Below are positions 27,088-51,626 of a stretch of 64,000 nt of DNA, piece by piece. Made by a program: the position numbers and the translations under genes. The stretch spans positions 2,880,001-2,944,000 of the forward strand of contig OX638340.1 in NCBI GenBank assembly GCA_951812955.1, given 5' to 3'. Position 1 is the stretch's first letter, and each line of letters starts with the position of its first letter. Source of the stretch: an uncultured Gemmatimonadota bacterium (GTDB taxonomy: Bacteria; JAAXHH01). The notes beneath the pieces were generated by a model. The model was given only the letters and a program-made list of their open reading frames with translations. It did no database searches and was not told the DNA's origin.

Positions 27088-28512
27088 ATGCATTATCTCA
27101 TATTGTTTGTGATTGCGTTCGCGCTATCCATGATGGGATGCGAAGGCAAGACAGGCCCCGCCGGCCCTACTGGTCAGCAGGGCGTGGCTGGTCCGCAGGG
27201 TGTTGCCGGGTCTACGGGATCTCAGGGATCTGCCGGTCCCCAGGGTCCTGAAGGTCCTCAAGGTCCCCAGGGCGATACCGGTCCCGCCGGTCCCCAGGGT
27301 CCTGAAGGTCCGCAGGGTTCCCAGGGCGATACCGGTCCCGCCGGCCCAGAGGGTCCCGCCGGTCCTCAGGGCGATACCGGTCCCGCCGGTCCAGAGGGTC
27401 CTGAAGGTCCGCAGGGCTCCCAGGGCGATACCGGTCCCGCCGGTCCTCAGGGACCTCCGGGCGAGGGCATAGACGCAGGTCAGGTGATCGACAGCGGCGT
27501 GCTGTCCGCCATTCATCACATCAAGTTGACCCAGGATGGAAACGCCAAGATGGTCGCCGTGTTCGACGCGCCTGATTTCGCGCTCAGAGCCGATCCGGGC
27601 AACAATCTGGATCTGACTATGGCCGTCGGTGAAACGACCACCATTGTCGCAAAGGCCGCCAGTCAGGACGGTGCGGTACTGGCCGTCGGTTTCGAATGGG
27701 AAACCAACTCTCAGGCCATTACGGTCGACGGCGGCACGATTACGGCAGTGGAACCGACCGCGGACGCCAAGATTACCCTCACGGCTGTTGGCAGGGGGGT
27801 GGAGATCGAGCTGGACGTCACGGTGCTCGACCTGATAAAGCGGATCGAGATCGCCATGCCGCACGCTTACGTTCTTCCAGTCGACGGTTCGGTCACGTTG
27901 TCGGCTACGGCCTACGATGCGACAAAGGGCGGAGATGAAATCGAAGGCGCCCAGATCATGTTCCTGAGTTCCGACACCAACGTGGTCAGCGTTGACGGCA
28001 ATACAATTACCGCCGAAGACGTGGGCACGGCCGAGGTCGTTGCCACGGGTGGCGGCGTCGACTCCAAGGATAAAGTCAAGATCACCGTCACCGGTACCGG
28101 CACGCTTCTGTATGCGATGCGATATACCAATATAGAAGCCGCCGCCCGTACCAGGGAACTGACAAAAGCCGATCCCGATGCCGTCGATGATGAGGGCAAT
28201 GCAGCTCCGATAACCCGGGAGGTGGATCCTGATACGAACATCGTTTTTCGAGTCCAGGTATTCGACATCGAGGCTGACGGTTCTCTGTCACTTACTTCTG
28301 ATACTCCGAATGTGACGGTCCGCAGCCAGCAGCCTGAGGTGGTAGCGATTCCCACTGACCAGAACTCGTTTGCTGTAGCCAATGGCATAGCGACAATTGC
28401 CATCCAGACCGGTGATACTTGGATCCTGGAACACGGGACGGCTTACCTGGTCGTTTCGTTGGACGGCGCCGAGGACATCGCTCTGCCCGGCATTATGATC
28501 GACGCACCCTGA
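27088..28512 (+). CDS. collagen-like (Gly-X-Y) repeat lipoprotein with bacterial Ig-like (Big_2-type) domains
   Basis: Signal peptide with lipobox (LSMMGC). About 36 uninterrupted GXY triplets ([16 protein letters not shown]...), then beta-rich repeats resembling Big_2 domains. Confidence 0.8.
27142..27468 (+). repeat. coding tandem repeat (collagen GXY tract with about 45-bp higher-order periodicity)
   Basis: Repeated ggtcccgccggtcc(c/a)cagggtcctgaaggtccgcagggttcccagggcgatacc units. Confidence 0.8.
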
Positions 28513-41822: not shown

Positions 41823-42914
41823 ATGTCCGAGCAGGTCCAGATTGCCCCGGCGCCGGAACCTGTCCCGCCGTCTCCCGCGCTGCCCGTACTGCAACCGGAC
41901 TCGGGCTATCTCGGGTACGACCGGGCGCTGTTGCGGCCCATGTCCCTCGGCACTAAGCTCCGAGCCTTGTTCAAGTACCTCTGGGTACGATTGAAGGGCG
42001 GACCGATGGCGGTGAACATGGAGGTGACCTATCTGTGCAACGCCACCTGCGATTTCTGTGATTACTGGAAGACGAAACGTTCAGGCAAGCTGGGCGATTA
42101 CGACTACATGGAGGCGCTCAGGAAGCTGAACCCCCTGACGGTCACGCTGACCGGCGGGGAACCCATGATCAACAAGCGACTGCCCGAGGCGGTCAGACGC
42201 ATCAAGGATGGCCTGGGATTCGTTTATATCGGCATGGTCACCCACGGATCTCTGCTGACCGTAGAAAAGGCCATGGCCCTGTGGGATGCCGGCGTGGACC
42301 ACATTTCGATCTCGTTGAACTATATCGGCCGCGAACATGACGAGGAACGGGGTATCGCGGGTTTGTACGAGCATATCTCCACGCTCGTTCCCCAGCTGAC
42401 GGCCCGAGGGGTCAACGTGATCTTCAACACGGTGATCATGCGTGAGAACCTGGACCACGTCGTACCCATCGCGCACCTGGCGCGTTCTATGGGCGCGAAG
42501 GTTTCCTACAGTTGCTACAGCGACTACAAGAATGGGAACGAAACCCACCTTGTGGATCCCGGTCACGAGGAGCAGTTGGAATCCGTGATCGAGGATCTGA
42601 TCTACCAGAAATCCCGATTGGGAAACATCGTCAATTCCGCCTGGTACTTGCGCCGGATCCCCGATTACTTCCAGGATGCGCTTCCAAGGTCCTGCACGGC
42701 AGCGGGCAAGTGGCTGGTGCAACTGACTCCCGACGGCAACGTAAAACCCTGTGCGGAACTGCCCGTAATGTCCGGGTATGCCGATTTCAAGCGGGTTTCA
42801 ACGAAGATCGACTGCAACCGGTGCTGGTACAGTTGCCGGGGTGAGACCGAATCTTCGTTGAAGCTTGTAAGGGTGCTGGAAGGCCTGGGCAGGGCCTGGC
42901 GCAGTAGCGCTTAA
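41823..42914 (+). CDS. radical SAM enzyme with C-terminal SPASM/twitch-like Cys cluster
   Basis: CNATCDFCDYW (CxxxCxxC) plus C-terminal Cys-rich CAELPV...CNRCWYSCRGE. AGGAG RBS. Confidence 0.75.
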   Translation: MSEQVQIAPAPEPVPPSPALPVLQPDSGYLGYDRALLRPMSLGTKLRALFKYLWVRLKGGPMAVNMEVTYLCNATCDFCDYWKTKRSGKLGDYDYMEALRKLNPLTVTLTGGEPMINKRLPEAVRRIKDGLGFVYIGMVTHGSLLTVEKAMALWDAGVDHISISLNYIGREHDEERGIAGLYEHISTLVPQLTARGVNVIFNTVIMRENLDHVVPIAHLARSMGAKVSYSCYSDYKNGNETHLVDPGHEEQLESVIEDLIYQKSRLGNIVNSAWYLRRIPDYFQDALPRSCTAAGKWLVQLTPDGNVKPCAELPVMSGYADFKRVSTKIDCNRCWYSCRGETESSLKLVRVLEGLGRAWRSSA

Positions 42915-45900
42915 ACTACTACCGGCGCCAGTTCCCGGGCGAGGATCTTCCCGGTATGGGACAACAGGGACGCTGCGATATCCTCGGGCGTACCCGCGGC
43001 AACCACGTGACCGCCCCGGTCACCGCCTTCCGGACCTAGATCGACGATCCAGTCGGCCGTCTTGATGACGTCCAGGTTGTGTTCGATGACGAGCACGGTG
43101 TTCCCCTTGTCCACCAGCCTGTTGAGGACGTTCAGCAACTTGCGGATGTCGTCGAAGTGCAGCCCGGTGGTCGGCTCGTCCAGCAGGTAGACGGTCTTGC
43201 CGGTACCCGGCCGCGAGAGCTCCTTCGCCAGCTTGACGCGTTGCGCCTCGCCTCCCGAGAGCGTAATGGCCGACTGGCCGAGCTTGATGTAGTCGAGTCC
43301 CACGTCGTAAAGCGTCTGCAACATACGCCGGATGCGGGGCACGTTCTCGAAGTGCTCCAGGGCTTCGGCCACGGTCATCTCCAGCGTATCCGCGATCGTC
43401 TTACCCTTGTAGGTCACTTCCAGCGTCTCCTTCATGTAGCGCTTGCCGTCGCACACTTCGCAGGTCATCCACACGTCCGCCAGGAAATGCATCTCGATCT
43501 TGCGCACGCCGAGTCCCTGGCAGGCCTCGCACCGTCCAGCGGGCACGTTGAAGCTGAACCGTCGGGGTTCGTAGCCCCGCATCCGAGCCTCCACGGTCCG
43601 GGAGAAGAGCGACCGGATCGGCGCGAAGAGCCCGACGTAGGTGGATGGATCCGACCTGGGGGAATGGCCGATCGGGGTCTGGTCGATGTTTATGACCTTG
43701 TCCACGAACCGCAACCCCTTGATTTCATCGTGGGGTCCAGGGTTTACCTGGGCGCGGTGCAGGGTGGAGGCCAGCACAGGATGAAGGATGTCGTTGACGA
43801 GCGAGCTCTTTCCCGAACCGGACACCCCTGTGACGCAGATGAAAACGCCAAGGGGCAACGTCACGTCGATGTTCTTCAGGTTGTTCTGGCGCGCCCCGAG
43901 GATGCTAAGCCTGTTCCGGCCCGGCTTGCGGCGGTCCCGCGGCACTTCGATGCGAAGCCTGTTTCCCAGGTAACTGCCGGTGAGTGAAGTCTCGAGTTCC
44001 CTGAGGGCGGCGGGGGTGCCTTCGCCCACGATCCGGCCTCCGAACACCCCCGCTCCCGGTCCGAAATCCACCAGGTTGTCGGCATGCTCCAGCGTGTCGC
44101 GGTCGTGTTCGACCATGATCAGCGTATTGCCGAGATCGCGCAGGTTCTCCAGGGCATGGATCAGCCTGAGGTTGTCCCGCGGGTGAAGCCCGATCGTGGG
44201 TTCGTCCAGCACGTAGAGCACGCCGGTCAGCCCCGATCCGATCTGGCTGGCCAAACGGATTCGCTGTGCTTCGCCGCCCGATAGCGAGGGCGCCCGGCGG
44301 TCGAGGGTCAGGTATTCCAGCCCCACGTCGAGGAGGAAGCGCATGCGGTTTCTGATTTCCTTCATCACCTCGCCCACGACTTCCCGCTGCGGCGCCGAGA
44401 GTTTCAGGCCTTCGATGAAGTCCAGGGCACGGTCGGTGGACATGGCGCATAGCGCCGCAATGGACACGCCGTCGATCAGCACGGAAAGGCTTTCGGATCG
44501 GAGCCGTCCGCCTTCACATGCCGAGCAGGGCGTCGGCTGCAGGAGGCGGGCCAGTTCGGGAAAGCGGTTCGCGTAGCGGGCGACCAGTTCCACGGCCGGG
44601 AAGATGCCCCGGAACTGGAAGGACAGGCCGGGGACCCGTTGGTCCTCTATCCACCGGTCGCTGCCATAGAGCAACACCTGGAGCTGTTCTGCCGACAGCG
44701 CTTCAACGGGCGTCTCCAGGTTGAATCCCTGGGTGGACGCCACCAGTTCAAGCAGGTCGAGTATGGACCGTTCGCCCACCGTGCCTTCCTCCCAGATCGC
44801 AGCCGCGGCGTCCCTTATGGATTTCGAACGATCGGGAATCAACAGGTCGAGATCGATGCCGGGCTGGGTTCCGAGTCCCTCGCAATCGGGGCACATGCCC
44901 GCCCGGTGGTTGAATGAGAAGCTCTGGGGCGAGAGTTCGTCGTAACTGACTCCGCAGGCGGGACACGAATAGTACCGGCTGAAGCGGATATCGTGTGGAC
45001 CGGCGGAATCCGGTTCCTGCACCTCGGCGATCAGCAATCCCCCCGATAGGTCCAATGCCGTCTCCACCGAATCGGCCAGGCGCTGTCGGACGTCGCCCTG
45101 CATGACGATCCGGTCTACCACCACGCACAGTTCGTGGCGCCGCCGCCGGTCGATCTGAATGTCCTCTTCGAGCCGCCGCAACACGCCATCGATGCGTACC
45201 CGGATGAACCCGTTCCGGCGGGCCCTGTCCAGAAGGGCATCGTATCCCTCGGCGCCTTCGGGTTCCAGCGGCGCATGCAGCGTGGCGCGGGTCTGCTCCG
45301 GGAGGGTCATGATGCGGTCCACGATCTGGCTGGGCGTCTGCGCGCCGATGGGAACGCGGCAGGCGGGGCAGTGGGGCGCGCCGACCAGGGCGTAGAGTGC
45401 GCGCAGGTACTCGTAGATCTCCGTAATGGTGCCCACCGTGGAGCGTGGGTTCCGGCCCGGCGCCTTCTGTTCGATGGATATGGCCGGGGAAAGGCCGACG
45501 ATATGGTCCACCTTCGGCTTCTGCATCTGCTGGAGGAACTGGCGCGCGTAGGCTGAAAGGGATTCCACGTACCGTCTCTGGCCTTCCGCGTAGATCGTAT
45601 CGAGGGCCAGGGAAGTTTTCCCGGAGCCGGAAACGCCCGTGAACACGGTCATCCGGTCCCGGGGGACAGCCACGGTGAGGTCACGCAGGTTGTGCTCCCG
45701 CGCGCCGCGCACGGTGATCTCCCGTATGTGGCCGTCTCCTGCTGCGTCCTGCCTGACCGGTTTAGGAGCCACGGGGAGCGCCCGGGGCCGAAGCGCCTTC
45801 TCCAGGATCCGGCCCGTGGACGATCCGTCGACGCCCGCCACGGTCTCCGGCGTTCCCTCCGCGATGACGCGGCCGCCCGCGTCGCCGCCCTCCGGGCCCA

Positions 45901-48613
45901 GGTCGATGATCCAGTCGGCCGTCTTGATCACGTCGATGTTATGTTCGATGACAACGACGGTGTTGCCCTTGTCCACGAAGGCGTTCAGCACGGCGAGCAG
46001 ATGGGTGATGTCTTCGAAATGCAGGCCGGTCGTCGGTTCGTCCAGCACGTACATGGTCCGTCCCGTGCTTCGCTTGCACAGTTCACGGCCCAGCTTGATG
46101 CGCTGCGCCTCGCCCCCCGACAGCGTGGGCGCGGGCTGGCCCAGCTTGATATACCCCAGGCCTACGTCGTAGAGCGTCCTCAGCACCCGTGCGATGGACG
46201 GAACGTGCTCGAACAGTTCAAGCGCCTCCTGCACGTCCAGGTCGAGCACGTCGGCAATGGAGCGTCCCTTGTATTTCACCTCCAGGGTTTCCCGGTCGAA
46301 GCGCCTGCCTTCGCAAACGGGACAGGAGACCCACATATCCGCCAGGAAGTCCATCTCCACCCGCGTAGCCCCGTTGCCCTGGCAGGCTTCGCACCGGCCG
46401 CCCCGCACGTTGAAGCTGAACCGTCCCGGCCGGTAACCGCGCAACCTGGCTTCGGGGGTTTCGGCGAAGAGGGAGCGGATCGCGTCGAAGACCTTCGTGT
46501 AGGTTGCCGGATTCGATCTGGGCGTGCGGCCGATGGGGGCCTGGTCGATGTTGATCACCTTGTCCAGGTGCCCGACGCCCTTGAGGCCGTCATGTTCGCC
46601 CGGGTCCGTGCCGGCCTTGTTCAGCAGACGGGCCAGAGCCGCGTACAGGATGTCGTTGATCAGCGAGCTTTTACCGGAACCGGACACGCCCGTTACGCAC
46701 GTAAACCGTCCCACGGGCAGGCGCACGTCCAGGTTCTTGAGGTTGTTCTGACGGGCGCCCTGGATCATCAGCCACTTATCGGCCTCGCCGCGGCGCAAGG
46801 CCGGAATCGGGATCGTCTTCTTCCCGCACAGATACTGCCCGGTCAACGAAGCGGCGCTGGCTGCCACTATGCCGGGGCGGCCTTCGGCCACGATCTCGCC
46901 GCCGTTGACGCCGGCGCCCGGACCAAAATCCACGATGTGGTCGGAAGCCCACATGGTTTCTTCATCGTGCTCGACAATGATGACCGTATTGCCCTGGTCC
47001 CGCAACTGGCCCAGGGTATCCAAAAGCCGCCGGTTGTCCCTGGGATGCAGTCCGATACTCGGTTCGTCGAGCACGTACATCACGCCGACGAGCCCGCGGC
47101 CGATCTGGCTCGCGAGACGTATGCGCTGCGCCTCTCCGCCTGATAGCGTCGGCGCCGTGCGTTCCAGCGAAAGGTATTCGAGGCCCACGTTGAGGAGGAA
47201 GTCGAGCCGGGCGACTATTTCCTTGAGCGCTTCGTCGCCGATCTGGCGTTCGGCATCCGAAAGGGTCAGCTTCCGAAAGAAAGCGCGGATATCCAGTATC
47301 GGCAACCGGCACAGCGCGGCGATGGAGAGGCCGCCCAGGGTGACGGAAAGCGCTTCTGGCTTGAGGCGTTCTCCGCCGCAGCGATCGCATTGGCCTATGG
47401 CCATGTACCGTTCGATCTCGGTCTTGTGCCTGGGGGACTTGAGCGTATGGTACCGTTTTTCTAGGTCGGGAACGACCCCGTTGAACCGGTCCTTGTGCGA
47501 CCACTCGCCGCCCTTCCCGTTGTGGAAGGTGAAGGTGATTCGCTTGTATCCCAGGCCGTACAGCACCACCTTCCGCGCCTCTTCGTCCAACCGTTCCCAT
47601 GGCGTGTCCAGGCTGAAACCCACGTGTTGGGCTATCCCCTCGAAAAAGTGCCGTTTCCACTGGTTGGCGATGGTGCCGAGGGGTTCGATCGCCCCTTCGT
47701 TAATGGACTTCGCCGGATCGGGAATGATGAGCCTGGGTTCGATCCGCATCATGGTGCCCAGGCCGTGACAGTTCGGGCACATGCCCTGGGGGCTGTTGAA
47801 GGAGAACAGTTGCGGCGTGGGCTCCTCGTAACTCAGGTCACACGCGTTGCAGGCGTACCGCGTGCTGAAGAGCAGATCAGAAGTCCGGCCGTCCCCCTCC
47901 ATCTGGACCAACACGGAACCCTGGCTCAGGTGCAACGCGCCTTCCACCGCCTCGACCAGGCGGGTGCGGATGTCCTCCCGCACGACGAGCCTATCCGTCA
48001 CCACTTCGATCGTGTGCCGCATGTTTCGGTCCAGATCCGGATCCTCGGAGAGGTTGACGACGTCGCCGTTCACCCGGGCGCGCAGGTAGCCCTGCCGGCG
48101 CAGGTCCTCGAAGAGGTCCCGGTATTCGCCGCGGCGCCCCTGGATGACCGGCGCCAGTACGAGCAGCCGCGTTCCTTCGGGAAGCGCCAGGATCCGCGCG
48201 ACGATCTGTTCGAGGGTCTGCGCCCCTATCGACCCACCGCATTTCATGCAGTGAGGCGCCCCTACCCGGGCATACAGCACGCGCAGGAAGTCGTAGATCT
48301 CCGTGATCGTCCCGACGGTGGAACGGGGGTTCAGCCCGGCGGTTTTCTGTTCGATGGAGATGGCGGGCGCCAGTCCCGTGATCCGGTCGACGTCGGGTTT
48401 CTGCATCTGGCCGAGGAACTGTCTCGCGTAGGCCGATAGGGATTCGACGTAGCGCCGCTGGCCCTCCGCGTAAAGGGTATCGAAAGCCAGCGAAGACTTG
48501 CCGGATCCGGATACGCCGGTGAAGCAGATCAGTGCGTCTTTCGGCAGATCCAGGCTCACGTTCTTCAGGTTGTGAACGCGGGCCCCTTTGATTTGTATGG
48601 ATGTTGCGGCCAT
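42911..48613 (-). CDS. uvrA: tandem-duplicated UvrA (UvrA-UvrA fusion, about 1900 aa)
   Basis: Two complete UvrA units in one frame. Each has N- and C-terminal ABC modules (GVSGSGKS twice), three Zn-finger Cys pairs and a UvrB-binding-like insert. The units are joined by a ~20-aa Pro-rich linker. Start MAATSIQIKGARVHNL aligns with the canonical UvrA N-terminus. Confidence 0.85.
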   Translation of the reverse strand: MAATSIQIKGARVHNLKNVSLDLPKDALICFTGVSGSGKSSLAFDTLYAEGQRRYVESLSAYARQFLGQMQKPDVDRITGLAPAISIEQKTAGLNPRSTVGTITEIYDFLRVLYARVGAPHCMKCGGSIGAQTLEQIVARILALPEGTRLLVLAPVIQGRRGEYRDLFEDLRRQGYLRARVNGDVVNLSEDPDLDRNMRHTIEVVTDRLVVREDIRTRLVEAVEGALHLSQGSVLVQMEGDGRTSDLLFSTRYACNACDLSYEEPTPQLFSFNSPQGMCPNCHGLGTMMRIEPRLIIPDPAKSINEGAIEPLGTIANQWKRHFFEGIAQHVGFSLDTPWERLDEEARKVVLYGLGYKRITFTFHNGKGGEWSHKDRFNGVVPDLEKRYHTLKSPRHKTEIERYMAIGQCDRCGGERLKPEALSVTLGGLSIAALCRLPILDIRAFFRKLTLSDAERQIGDEALKEIVARLDFLLNVGLEYLSLERTAPTLSGGEAQRIRLASQIGRGLVGVMYVLDEPSIGLHPRDNRRLLDTLGQLRDQGNTVIIVEHDEETMWASDHIVDFGPGAGVNGGEIVAEGRPGIVAASAASLTGQYLCGKKTIPIPALRRGEADKWLMIQGARQNNLKNLDVRLPVGRFTCVTGVSGSGKSSLINDILYAALARLLNKAGTDPGEHDGLKGVGHLDKVINIDQAPIGRTPRSNPATYTKVFDAIRSLFAETPEARLRGYRPGRFSFNVRGGRCEACQGNGATRVEMDFLADMWVSCPVCEGRRFDRETLEVKYKGRSIADVLDLDVQEALELFEHVPSIARVLRTLYDVGLGYIKLGQPAPTLSGGEAQRIKLGRELCKRSTGRTMYVLDEPTTGLHFEDITHLLAVLNAFVDKGNTVVVIEHNIDVIKTADWIIDLGPEGGDAGGRVIAEGTPETVAGVDGSSTGRILEKALRPRALPVAPKPVRQDAAGDGHIREITVRGAREHNLRDLTVAVPRDRMTVFTGVSGSGKTSLALDTIYAEGQRRYVESLSAYARQFLQQMQKPKVDHIVGLSPAISIEQKAPGRNPRSTVGTITEIYEYLRALYALVGAPHCPACRVPIGAQTPSQIVDRIMTLPEQTRATLHAPLEPEGAEGYDALLDRARRNGFIRVRIDGVLRRLEEDIQIDRRRRHELCVVVDRIVMQGDVRQRLADSVETALDLSGGLLIAEVQEPDSAGPHDIRFSRYYSCPACGVSYDELSPQSFSFNHRAGMCPDCEGLGTQPGIDLDLLIPDRSKSIRDAAAAIWEEGTVGERSILDLLELVASTQGFNLETPVEALSAEQLQVLLYGSDRWIEDQRVPGLSFQFRGIFPAVELVARYANRFPELARLLQPTPCSACEGGRLRSESLSVLIDGVSIAALCAMSTDRALDFIEGLKLSAPQREVVGEVMKEIRNRMRFLLDVGLEYLTLDRRAPSLSGGEAQRIRLASQIGSGLTGVLYVLDEPTIGLHPRDNLRLIHALENLRDLGNTLIMVEHDRDTLEHADNLVDFGPGAGVFGGRIVGEGTPAALRELETSLTGSYLGNRLRIEVPRDRRKPGRNRLSILGARQNNLKNIDVTLPLGVFICVTGVSGSGKSSLVNDILHPVLASTLHRAQVNPGPHDEIKGLRFVDKVINIDQTPIGHSPRSDPSTYVGLFAPIRSLFSRTVEARMRGYEPRRFSFNVPAGRCEACQGLGVRKIEMHFLADVWMTCEVCDGKRYMKETLEVTYKGKTIADTLEMTVAEALEHFENVPRIRRMLQTLYDVGLDYIKLGQSAITLSGGEAQRVKLAKELSRPGTGKTVYLLDEPTTGLHFDDIRKLLNVLNRLVDKGNTVLVIEHNLDVIKTADWIVDLGPEGGDRGGHVVAAGTPEDIAASLLSHTGKILARELAPVVV

Positions 48614-48844
48614 GGGAATCAAGCCGGATTCAGCGGGTCGTTGGATCAGGGCGAACGGCGGCGGCACAGCAAGCGAAAGATGCTATACGGGTGTTTAGAA
48701 ATCAAGGTATTTTCAAGGTGGACCGTGAATGGCGGAAAAGACGCTTGTTCTATGCCGTTACCGGAGTTAACGTGGTGTCGGCCGGTCCATCAGAATGCGG
48801 CGCGCCGGCCCGCCGCAGCCGATGTCGGAAACGGGACGATCATC

Positions 48845-49570
48845 ATGTCGAACGACTGGTATATCGAATACTTCGACGAAGACTACTACCATTTCGACCA
48901 CCACGAGGATACGGATCTCGAAGTGGACGGACTCGCGCGCCTGTTGGACCGCCGCGAGAGGAAAAGGATACTGGACATTGGCTGCGGCTACGGACGGGTC
49001 AGCACACCGTTGCGGAAACGCGGCTATCGGGTCGTGGGCTACGACCTGTCCCCCGCCCTGCTGAAACGGGCCCGTGAAGGGGATCCCGGGGGAATCTGGG
49101 TCAGGGGAGACATGCGTGAACTGCCCTTTGCCGGAGCATTCGACACGGCCATCAGCCTGTTTAATGCCTTCGGGTACTTCGAAGAAGAAGAAGAAAACTT
49201 CAGGGTCCTGAAGTCTGTTTCGGAGGCATTGCACCCCGGCGGGCTGTTCGTATGCCAACTCGTCAACCGGGACTACCTTGTCCGCCGGTTCGCCGCCCAG
49301 GAAGTCCACCGCCGGGGAGACCTGGTCATACTGGAAGAGCGCGATTTCGATGCGATCGCGAACAGGGTGCTAACCAGGACGACCGTGATCAGTGGCGCGG
49401 ACAGACGGGAGTACGCGTCTTCCATCCGTGTCTACACCGTGACCGAGCTGGACCTGCTCCTGGCCGCTGCCGGCATGACGATACGGGAAGTCCACGGCGG
49501 ACTCGATTTCAGACCCTACGACTGGGATACGAACCAGTTGGTCATCATCGCCGAAAGAACCGATCGGTAG
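48845..49570 (+). CDS. class I SAM-dependent methyltransferase
   Basis: ILDIGCGYGRV motif I and an acidic motif II. The longer 5' ORF overlaps uvrA and is unlikely to be coding. Confidence 0.65.
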   Translation: MSNDWYIEYFDEDYYHFDHHEDTDLEVDGLARLLDRRERKRILDIGCGYGRVSTPLRKRGYRVVGYDLSPALLKRAREGDPGGIWVRGDMRELPFAGAFDTAISLFNAFGYFEEEEENFRVLKSVSEALHPGGLFVCQLVNRDYLVRRFAAQEVHRRGDLVILEERDFDAIANRVLTRTTVISGADRREYASSIRVYTVTELDLLLAAAGMTIREVHGGLDFRPYDWDTNQLVIIAERTDR

Positions 49571-49680: not shown

Positions 49681-50724
49681 ATGGCATCGGATCTGTTGCG
49701 CGTTGGCGTGATCGGATTGGGGTTCGGTCAATATCACATCCGTGGTTACCAGGCCTGTAACGGTGTGACGGTTGAGACGATCTGCAGCCGGACAACGGAA
49801 ACCGCGCAACGCGTGGCGAAGGACTACGGGATAGCCGAGACCCAGACGGATTACCGGGCGGTACTGGATCGCAAGGATATCGATGCCGTCAGTATCTGCA
49901 CGCCGGTGAACCTGCACAAGCAGATGGTCATCGAGGCCCTGGAATCCGGTAAACACGTCCTGTGCGAGAAACCGCTCGGGTTGAATACCGCGGAAGCCGG
50001 GGAAATGCTTGAAAGCGCGCGCCGGAGCGGCATGGTGCACATGACCAACTTCGGCTGGCGGTTCAATGGACCGGCCTTTCGCATGAAATCCCTGCTGGAC
50101 GAGGGTTACATCGGCAAGACCTACCATCTCAATGCCCGGTACATGATGGGTTACCGGGCAAGCCCCCGGAAGGAGCACAGCTGGCGTGAGCGGCGCATGG
50201 CGGCGGGACTCGGCGCCATGGGCGATCTCGGTGTACACCTGATCGATATGACACGGTGGTGGATCGGAGAATTCGAACGGGTATGTTCGCTGATGCACAC
50301 GCTCATCCCGGAACGTCCCGCGCCGGACTCATCCACCATGCGGGAGTCTGAACTGGAGGACGCCTGCGCTTTTATCTCACAGATGCAGGACGGGGTCCAG
50401 GCCGTTTTCCACGTGAGCCGTTGCGCCCTGAGCACGGACTACATCCACATAGATATCCACGGCAGCAATGGAGCCCTGCAGTTCCAGTTCCTGCGTGACA
50501 CCATGCAGGCCAGTCTGAAAGGCGGACAGGGCCTGCGAGGAAACATCCAGCCCCTGTCCGTGCCCGCCCGGAAGGGCGCGTTGTCTCCACAGCGACACTT
50601 TATCGACGCGATACGCTCCGGTGGGGAAGCCAATCCGAGTTTTCACGAAGGCTTCTGCGTGCAGCAGGTCGCTGACGCCATCACCGCTTCCGAGGAGAAA
50701 CAGGCATGGGTATCCCTCTTATGA
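49681..50724 (+). CDS. Gfo/Idh/MocA-family NAD(P)-dependent oxidoreductase
   Basis: LRVGVIGLGFGQ Rossmann start and the EKP motif (VLCEKPLG). Confidence 0.75.
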   Translation: MASDLLRVGVIGLGFGQYHIRGYQACNGVTVETICSRTTETAQRVAKDYGIAETQTDYRAVLDRKDIDAVSICTPVNLHKQMVIEALESGKHVLCEKPLGLNTAEAGEMLESARRSGMVHMTNFGWRFNGPAFRMKSLLDEGYIGKTYHLNARYMMGYRASPRKEHSWRERRMAAGLGAMGDLGVHLIDMTRWWIGEFERVCSLMHTLIPERPAPDSSTMRESELEDACAFISQMQDGVQAVFHVSRCALSTDYIHIDIHGSNGALQFQFLRDTMQASLKGGQGLRGNIQPLSVPARKGALSPQRHFIDAIRSGGEANPSFHEGFCVQQVADAITASEEKQAWVSLL

Positions 50725-51626
50725 CATCGCGCTGGACAGCATTTAGGCGTTTTTCATTACTGCCGGTCCTTCTGGTCCTGTGCTGGATCCCTGGCTGTGC
50801 CGATCCCGATTCGGATACGGATTCCGCCGGCGCGGCCCGGGATGAAGCGCGCGTGATTGCGGAAGAGGTGATGGAGGCCATGGGTGGATTGGACAGCTGG
50901 CATGCCACCCGGTATATAGGGTTTTCCTTTTTCGGGTTTCGCACCCACTACTGGGATAAGGACACCGGCCGGTACCGCGTATCCTGGACCGACCGGGAAA
51001 GCGGCCAGTCTCACATCATCCTGATGAACCTGCAAACGGGCGATGGGAGCGTGTACGTGGACGGGGCGGAAGTCACCGACCCCGGGGAGCGGAATGGGTT
51101 TCTGGAGCGCGCACGGGGCGCGTGGATCAACGATACGTACTGGCTGCTGATGCCGTACAAGCTGCAGGATCCGGGCGTGGACCTGGCCTACGCGGGCGAG
51201 GAAGTCGTCGACGGGATAGTCTATGATACGTTACATCTCAGGTTCGATGAGGTGGGTAATACGCCCGGCGACGAATACTGGGCCTATATCAACCGGGACA
51301 CGCGCCTGATGGACAGATGGGTCTATCTCCTGCAGTTGCGGGAGGGACAGGACGAGCGAAGTCGCGGCGAATGGAAGTGGAACGACTGGCGCAAGTACGG
51401 CAAAATCCTGCTGTCCGCCGAGCGCGAAAGGATGGACGGCCAGAAACGCTCCCACGAAGACGTGGCCGTGTACGAACATGTGGCGGATCGGGTATTCACG
51501 TCTCCGGATCCGGTCACTCCTGATATGGTACTGGAACGAACCGATCCGGGCGATCCGGGCGCTTCTGAAGCCTCAGGTGCTTCAGGAGATACCGCCGACA
51601 CCCGGCCCGCCGGACGGTCAGAATGA
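50706..51626 (+). CDS. hypothetical secreted protein / putative lipoprotein
   Basis: Signal peptide with a Cys (LLVLCWIPGC). No recognisable family. Acidic C-terminal tail. Confidence 0.35.
   Translation: MGIPLMTSRWTAFRRFSLLPVLLVLCWIPGCADPDSDTDSAGAARDEARVIAEEVMEAMGGLDSWHATRYIGFSFFGFRTHYWDKDTGRYRVSWTDRESGQSHIILMNLQTGDGSVYVDGAEVTDPGERNGFLERARGAWINDTYWLLMPYKLQDPGVDLAYAGEEVVDGIVYDTLHLRFDEVGNTPGDEYWAYINRDTRLMDRWVYLLQLREGQDERSRGEWKWNDWRKYGKILLSAERERMDGQKRSHEDVAVYEHVADRVFTSPDPVTPDMVLERTDPGDPGASEASGASGDTADTRPAGRSE

Follow-up and report, generated by a model that had tools for sequence, protein, structure and literature searches.

The 64,000-nucleotide stretch of DNA analysed here, called the window in the following, comprises positions 2,880,001 to 2,944,000 of contig OX638340.1 from an uncultured Gemmatimonadota bacterium. 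Its minus strand carries a uvrA gene that encodes two complete units of the DNA damage sensor UvrA in tandem within one polypeptide. The coding sequence (42911..48613) specifies 1,900 amino acids plus the stop codon and is part of an open reading frame (ORF) that extends without interruption from 42911 to 48667. According to the ORF listing, the protein would comprise 1,918 amino acids if the GTG at 48667, the other start available upstream, were the start codon. Translation more likely starts at the ATG at 48613, which opens a protein of 1,900 amino acids beginning with MAATSIQIKG, since residues 4-6 are where the alignments with E. coli UvrA and with UvrAs of solved structure set in.

The N unit (residues 1-941; 45791..48613, minus strand) is a complete class I UvrA with two nucleotide-binding domains (NBD-I and NBD-II), a UvrB-binding domain, an insertion domain and three zinc modules. 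The C unit (residues 963-1900; 42914..45727, minus strand) is a second complete class I UvrA. The two units share 56.2% identity over 952 aligned columns in a blastp comparison, and neither a stop codon nor a frameshift is present in the ORF between them, in agreement with the original prediction, made from the sequence alone, of a single 1,900-residue ORF with two UvrA units. They are connected by a linker of 21 residues, RPRALPVAPKPVRQDAAGDGH (residues 942-962; 45728..45790, minus strand), the bounds of which were derived from the alignment to E. coli UvrA. The linker is rich in proline, alanine and arginine and contains five prolines, and the short Pro-rich connection that had been predicted was thus found.

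Both units have all domains and motifs of UvrA. In the whole protein the Walker A, LSGGE and Walker B motifs occur four times each, and its 12 CxxC pairs represent three zinc modules per unit. The Pfam families UvrA_inter (PF17760, the UvrB-binding domain) and UvrA_DNA-bind (PF17755, the insertion domain) were each matched twice. In the N unit the UvrB-binding domain extends from about residue 126 to 254 (47852..48238, minus strand) between the CxxC pairs of zinc module 1, with the best PF17760 stretch at residues 132-238. In the C unit it covers about residues 1086-1216 (44966..45358, minus strand), coincides with the second PF17760 stretch and is bordered by CxxC pairs at 1082 and 1217. Equivalents of R216 and E222 of E. 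coli UvrA are present in both domains. Therefore, the two ABC ATPase modules, the three zinc-finger cysteine clusters and the UvrB-binding-like insertion that had been assigned to each half from the sequence are all verified, the ATPase modules by the motif counts and by the equivalents of K37 and K646, the cysteine clusters by the CxxC pairs, and the insertion by the two PF17760 matches. Each unit alone also exceeds the cutoffs of two curated UvrA equivalog models, i.e., NF001503 (cutoff 1,147 bits; N unit 1,440.7 bits, C unit 1,320.7 bits) and TIGR00630 (cutoff 729.8 bits; N unit 1,385.7 bits, C unit 1,276 bits). The identity to E. coli UvrA is 55.9% for the N unit and 52.5% for the C unit, and solved class I UvrAs were matched end to end, for example 9gxk_A with 1,220 bits over residues 6-941.

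Conservation was analysed in an alignment that combined the separated units of 132 tandem proteins with 54 single-unit UvrAs. In the single-unit UvrAs 278 positions are near-invariant, defined as at least 95% conserved; the N unit retains 265 (95%) and the C unit 259 (93%) of them. Averaged over its columns, each domain, the UvrB-binding domain among them, is conserved in the clades of N and C units to the same degree as in single-unit UvrAs, and all 11 cysteine columns that are conserved in single-unit UvrAs are occupied by cysteine in both units. Nine residues have been tested in E. coli UvrA, namely, K37 and K646 of the two ATPase sites, G502 in damage recognition, R712, R722, R724 and R730 in DNA binding, and R216 and E222 of the surface for UvrB and Mfd (PMC3025350). 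All nine are present in both units and are conserved in both clades. In both clades conservation reaches 100% for the equivalents of K37 and K646 as well as for R216. At position 222 the N clade has E or D, and the C clade has E in 97% of the cases.

The comparison with relatives of about 90% identity revealed ratios of nonsynonymous to synonymous substitution rates (dN/dS) of 0.10-0.13 in both units, which corresponds to an equal purifying selection on the two. In these relatives the linker invariably has a length of 21 residues, yet its sequence identity is 43-52% and its dN/dS is 0.33-0.62. In the family the median linker length is 23 residues, compared to the 21 of the window protein. Linkers of 20-29 residues are found in 112 of the 132 tandem proteins, the full range is 18-62, and the residues A, R, G, P and K are enriched. 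The combination of a fixed length with a free sequence is characteristic of a flexible tether that holds two fully functional units together within a limited reach. The view of the protein as a covalent UvrA dimer, which was already part of the original prediction, is the natural reading, because one gene encodes two complete units with all hallmarks.

Origin and distribution of tandem UvrAs

Neighbour-joining trees were calculated with 205 non-redundant units, and truncated tandem loci were not counted as single units. The N units were monophyletic with a bootstrap value of 96 out of 100, the C units with a value of 98, and N and C units together were separated from the single-unit UvrAs with a value of 100. 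The N unit of the window protein falls into the N clade and its C unit into the C clade. Two derived states, R266Q and A276M (E. coli numbering here and below), are common to both units and affect sites at which single-unit UvrAs show a conservation of at least 95%. The two clades, their joint separation from the single-unit UvrAs and the common derived states argue for one duplication and fusion. This pattern indicates that the tandem family stems from a single ancient event and that the N and C units have been co-inherited since then. Of the two, the C unit has the somewhat higher rate of evolution.

To characterize the distribution of the family, 5.8 billion clustered proteins were searched. 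Among the 120 best clusters listed, 119 represent proteins of 1,880-2,353 amino acids and the remaining one is a fragment; their identity to the query ranges from 50 to 98%. Full-length relatives of 1,898-1,901 amino acids are present at 90-98% identity, while shorter members of the same 90% clusters, for example of 987 or 1,122 amino acids, look like fragments. The closest of the matches listed (98%) stem from metagenome-assembled genomes (MAGs) labelled as Gemmatimonadota, some of them on contigs of 3.9 Mb. The named cluster members are called "excinuclease ABC subunit UvrA", and the MAGs are labelled as Gemmatimonadota, Latescibacterota, Armatimonadota, Planctomycetota and Gemmataceae.

In addition, a pattern-dependent scan of one genome per GTDB species was performed. 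The best 80 loci included 17 tandem and 63 single-unit uvrA genes, and in each of the 17 tandem loci one continuous ORF spans both units. The tandem loci were found in MAGs labelled as Latescibacterota (90% identity) and in Zixibacteria (71%) as well as, at 49-57% identity, in Pirellulaceae, Planctomycetaceae, Gemmataceae, Anatilimnocola, Poribacteria and Verrucomicrobia. A 90% identical protein is encoded on the closed chromosome OY843748.1 (3.94 Mb), and among Poribacteria the gene is present on the chromosome OZ240244.1. None of the 17 assemblies contributed a second uvrA locus to the best 80 loci, which is weak evidence in a scan that depends on a pattern. The original prediction had assumed that the architecture is uncommon, and this assumption has to be abandoned. 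The fused form is widespread and already abundant in the databases, where it is routinely annotated as UvrA and where near-identical sequences have been deposited; an exact look-up of the window protein gave no match. A genuine single-unit uvrA gene of 950 codons, with a stop codon that precedes the end of the contig, was found in an uncultured Planctomycetia MAG (L071, CAZMYR010000075.1), although the tandem gene is present in further members of this class. Single-unit and tandem genes may be alternatives or may coexist.

A third search, with HMMER and the N unit as query, covered 1.84 billion representatives clustered at 50% identity. Almost all of the 150 best matches are multi-unit proteins. 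Two complete units are present in 38 of them, a complete unit followed by a unit that lacks the insertion domain in 37, and two units without the UvrB-binding domain in 27; smaller classes also exist, for example with the reverse order. Most of these other architectures are about equally distant from the N unit and the C unit of the window protein and from single-unit UvrAs, and they are therefore regarded as separate lineages. Of all tandem families, the one with two complete units, of which the window protein is a member, is the most conservative, and nothing has been deleted in it.

Several variants of tandem proteins were observed. The proteins in which both UvrB-binding domains are missing (P0215, P0227, P0236, P0252 and others) have lengths of about 1,570-1,740 amino acids and are fused class II-like UvrAs, a distinct and apparently undescribed architecture. 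In two poribacterial MAGs (L014 and L015) the C unit lacks the insertion domain (about residues 285-405 of E. coli UvrA), resulting in a protein of about 1,833 amino acids with the layout of the above-mentioned class of 37 representatives. Tandem UvrAs of planctomycetal and armatimonadotal origin (P0029, P0075, P0105 and P0114; 2,240-2,350 amino acids) have an additional C-terminal tail of about 350 amino acids. This tail is composed of two repeats of about 170 amino acids, each of which opens with PW..DGR.WH, and a single repeat is present in forms of about 2,118 amino acids (P0065 and P0096). No Pfam family matched the tail of these longer relatives at E<=1.

Double-length UvrAs are also represented by the NCBIfam equivalog model NF001885 ("excinuclease ABC subunit A", PRK00635), which has 1,809 positions and to which the window protein can be aligned. 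This model presumably corresponds to the double-length UvrA of chlamydiae. Membership of the window protein in this family was rejected: it scores 1,399.3 bits where the cutoff is 3,054, and for each of its units the best alignment is with the first half of the model. The cutoff was also not reached by any of five representatives of about 1,800 amino acids. Proteins of this chlamydial type (1,786-1,809 amino acids) are about 100 residues shorter than a tandem of two complete units, and their length resembles that of the class with a second unit devoid of the insertion domain. In Chlamydia trachomatis the annotated uvrA gene (ct333) has a length of 5,361 bp and encodes a UvrABC system protein A of 1,786 amino acids (PMC6686042). 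Apart from the length of this gene, neither a description nor an experimental characterization of a tandem UvrA was found in the searchable full-text literature, in which the fused form thus appears to be experimentally uncharacterized. A classification of UvrA homologues was reportedly presented by Goosen and Moolenaar in 2008.

The canonical class I UvrAs of E. coli, Geobacillus stearothermophilus (2R6F), Thermotoga maritima (3PIH) and Mycobacterium tuberculosis (3ZQJ) form homodimers and have the same full set of domains per unit as the window protein. The sole departure from this norm is that a canonical UvrA is a single unit of about 940 amino acids that dimerizes with itself, whereas the window protein has 1,900 amino acids and two diverged units. 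As the units are tethered and have diverged to 56% identity, the "dimer" would be an obligate heterodimer with unit-specific substitutions. In full-size ABC transporters and ABCF proteins the partners of half-size ABC dimers are likewise fused in one chain, which allows asymmetry between the halves. In contrast to these fused proteins, UvrA is itself already an internal tandem of two NBDs, and the window chain therefore has four.

Genomic neighbourhood

As predicted, uvrB and uvrC are not adjacent to the tandem gene. Neither of them nor a further uvrA was found in the 64-kb window by tblastn with the E. coli proteins, and none of the 17 tandem loci has uvrB or uvrC at a distance of up to 6 kb. 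The same is true for the 8 kb flanks of tandem genes on circular contigs of 5.9 and 8.1 Mb, the neighbours of which are unrelated to those in the window. Many single-unit loci of Firmicutes and Actinobacteria (L020-L024, L027, L028, L031 and others) have uvrB directly upstream, and some have uvrC downstream. However, the lack of adjacent uvrB and uvrC genes says little, because uvrA, uvrB and uvrC are mutually unlinked also in E. coli.

The near neighbours encode a phosphodiesterase, an MlaC-like protein, a DUF3047 protein, a radical SAM protein, a methyltransferase, GFO/IDH/MocA oxidoreductases and an SDR protein; genes for polysaccharides and lipids, RelA/SpoT and others follow at a larger distance. 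This neighbourhood is common only to the close relatives L001-L004 and L016, and no partner gene of the tandem uvrA is conserved across phyla. No biosynthetic or efflux cluster was found near uvrA in the window, in which not every small ORF has been annotated. Megasynthases are absent from the window, because uvrA is its only ORF of more than 1,100 codons.

The uvrA gene ends in a TTAA (42911..42914) in which its stop codon overlaps with that of the convergent radical SAM gene on the plus strand, exactly as had been noted before. The convergent gene had been described as radical SAM/SPASM. The first part of this assignment holds (PF04055), while the SPASM part is weak, with sub-threshold similarity to PqqE/PTO1314-type families as its sole support.

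A conserved block of 33 nucleotides with one variable position, AAAATACCTTGATTTCTAAACAC(C/G)CGTATAGCA, is located upstream of uvrA (48681..48713, minus strand). It is present in the window and in four relatives (L001, L002, L003 and L016), has been kept although the dS of the coding regions is 0.42-0.55, and occurs only once in the window. It matched neither an Rfam family nor the sigma-70 consensus. The block is probably a promoter or regulatory site that is common to uvrA and the divergent methyltransferase gene. Terminator or promoter signals were not found between the units or elsewhere around uvrA, and an Rfam scan likewise remained empty. The divergent methyltransferase ORF (48572-49570, plus strand) has a mechanically assigned GTG start that overlaps with the opening codons of uvrA. 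Translation probably begins downstream of it, near 48,810, because a good alignment with the relatives does not set in before about residue 82 in some loci.

Two further ORFs of the window were noted. One encodes 474 amino acids with collagen triple-helix repeats (27088-28512, plus strand; PF01391, E=3.8e-16), which is unusual for a bacterial genome. The other encodes 306 amino acids (50706-51626, plus strand), is 76-79% conserved in L002, L003 and L016, and did not match any Pfam or NCBIfam family.

Function of the fused protein and alternative explanations

The gene product most probably is a single-chain, pseudo-dimeric class I UvrA that acts in ordinary nucleotide excision repair (NER). 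The strongest argument is that the surfaces for UvrB and Mfd as well as the DNA-binding and ATPase residues are under purifying selection, which would not be expected for a protein outside of the UvrABC pathway. The data show the anatomy of the protein, its conservation and pattern of selection, the single origin and the wide distribution. We infer that the N unit pairs with the C unit of its own chain, that the protein cooperates with UvrB and UvrC, and that it serves as the main NER sensor of the cell.

In this view an ancestral uvrA gene underwent tandem duplication and a single fusion, after which the N and C units evolved as distinct orthologues in several phyla. In the proposed mechanism a flexible tether of about 21 residues would let the two units pack like the two protomers of a UvrA2 dimer, and a single polypeptide would thus unite four ATPase sites with two surfaces for DNA contact and two domains for binding UvrB or Mfd. 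The fused UvrA would scan the DNA, recognize lesions and load two UvrB molecules, and the resulting (A-A)B2 complex would correspond to A2B2. Verification and incision would then be carried out by UvrB and UvrC, the genes of which would be located elsewhere. The fusion would make dimerization independent of the concentration and would fix a 1:1 "heterodimer" of N and C units, in which a mild asymmetry would be possible.

Four points weigh against this explanation. The view of uvrB, uvrC and a second uvrA is confined to the 64-kb window and the flanks of the relatives; the single-unit gene of the Planctomycetia MAG L071 means that not every member of the carrier phyla has the tandem form; pairing within the chain is deduced from the behaviour of the linker only; and the C clade has fixed changes that suggest that the halves may differ in function. 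The latter are found at otherwise invariant sites and include D72K, R695H/T696S and changes at N700 as well as G160E, which is located in the UvrB-binding domain. In NBD-II the sequence GRTPRSN that follows the Q-loop has thereby become GHSPRSD in the C clade.

It is conceivable, albeit with a clearly lower probability, that the protein is an obligately asymmetric UvrA, in which the halves took over different jobs after the fusion. For example, only one side might verify the lesion, load UvrB or dock Mfd. Such an asymmetry could be brought about by a differently tuned distal ATPase site or UvrB-binding domain of one half, and the changes of the C clade at otherwise invariant positions would then be its trace.

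Another explanation, which we consider to be unlikely, is that the tandem protein is a specialized paralogue that exists beside an ordinary single-unit UvrA and deals with particular lesions or DNA-bound small molecules instead of general NER. Additional UvrA paralogues of uncertain function are indeed common in many bacteria (PMC9328131, PMC3747172), and a single-unit uvrA is present in at least one Planctomycetia MAG. The phylogenetic separation of the N and C clades from the single-unit UvrAs and the specific substitutions of the C clade would also be in agreement with a specialized role. However, the UvrB-binding domain, zinc module 1 and R216/E222 have been kept under purifying selection, which is sensible only if UvrB or Mfd is bound, and each of the units passes the canonical equivalog cutoffs. 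Furthermore, a biosynthetic or efflux cluster was not found near uvrA, the neighbours are not conserved across phyla, and the best 80 loci do not contain a second uvrA from the 17 tandem assemblies, although the latter is weak evidence.

A special case of such a paralogue, i.e., a relation to the atypical UvrAs that confer resistance to DNA-binding natural products, had been part of the original prediction and did not find support. The known self-resistance proteins are class IIa UvrA-like proteins that have neither the UvrB-binding domain nor zinc finger 1 and act independently of NER (PMC9328131, PMC9241694). Members of this class, such as DrrC, Ecm16, CosU and MtrX, share with the window protein the UvrA fold, the two ABC ATPase modules and the character of DNA-binding ATPases, and the solved structure of Ecm16 (7sh1) is a distant match of the window protein with 497 bits. 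Yet both window units have retained the UvrB-binding domain as well as zinc module 1 and R216/E222. In addition, a gene of the DrrC/Ecm16 type would be expected in or beside the biosynthetic cluster for a DNA-binding natural product, whereas no such cluster was found in the neighbourhood of the tandem gene. The lack of class IIa traits, the scores above the equivalog cutoffs and the absence of a cluster from the neighbourhood thus leave the resistance reading unsupported.

It also seems rather improbable that units of different chains pair in trans, as N-N, C-C or N-C, and form dimers of tandems or assemblies of four or more units that could bridge DNA or scan it cooperatively. The data do not fix the geometry of pairing, linkers of up to 62 residues exist in the family, and at least two configurations have been described for the UvrA dimer, the "open tray" and the "closed groove" (PMC7835731). 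On the other hand, the narrow range of linker lengths in most of the tandem proteins, combined with a free sequence, is expected of a tether that spans a fixed intramolecular distance rather than of a simple connector. The diverged N and C orthologues have also been inherited together, strictly 1:1, over a long evolutionary time, as would fit an obligate N-C pair.

An artefact of assembly or sequencing, in which two adjacent uvrA genes would have been merged by a missed stop or frameshift, was rejected and can practically be dismissed: the test proposed in the original prediction revealed no stop or frameshift between the halves, the ORF is continuous in 17 independent assemblies that include closed long-read chromosomes, more than 120 protein clusters exist, the linker is in frame and conserved in length, and the units are not separated by a terminator or promoter signal.

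For the annotation these results mean that the gene should be named uvrA (fused, two-unit form), and that it should be treated neither as a marker of natural-product resistance nor as two genes. To a specialist a fused UvrA will be no surprise and does not represent a new system; it is, however, useful for dissecting the asymmetry of protomers. The mechanistic problem that can be addressed is the role of each of the four ATPase sites and of the two UvrB-binding domains in the UvrA dimer. Tandem UvrAs are natural reagents for this purpose, in which a mutation can be restricted to a site of one half. If the two halves should turn out to be obligately asymmetric, nature would supply a single-chain UvrA for assigning the roles of individual sites in the A2B2 complex. 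Tandem UvrAs exemplify how a homodimeric damage sensor was turned into a single chain, which several phyla have retained over a very long period while both halves stayed under full constraint.

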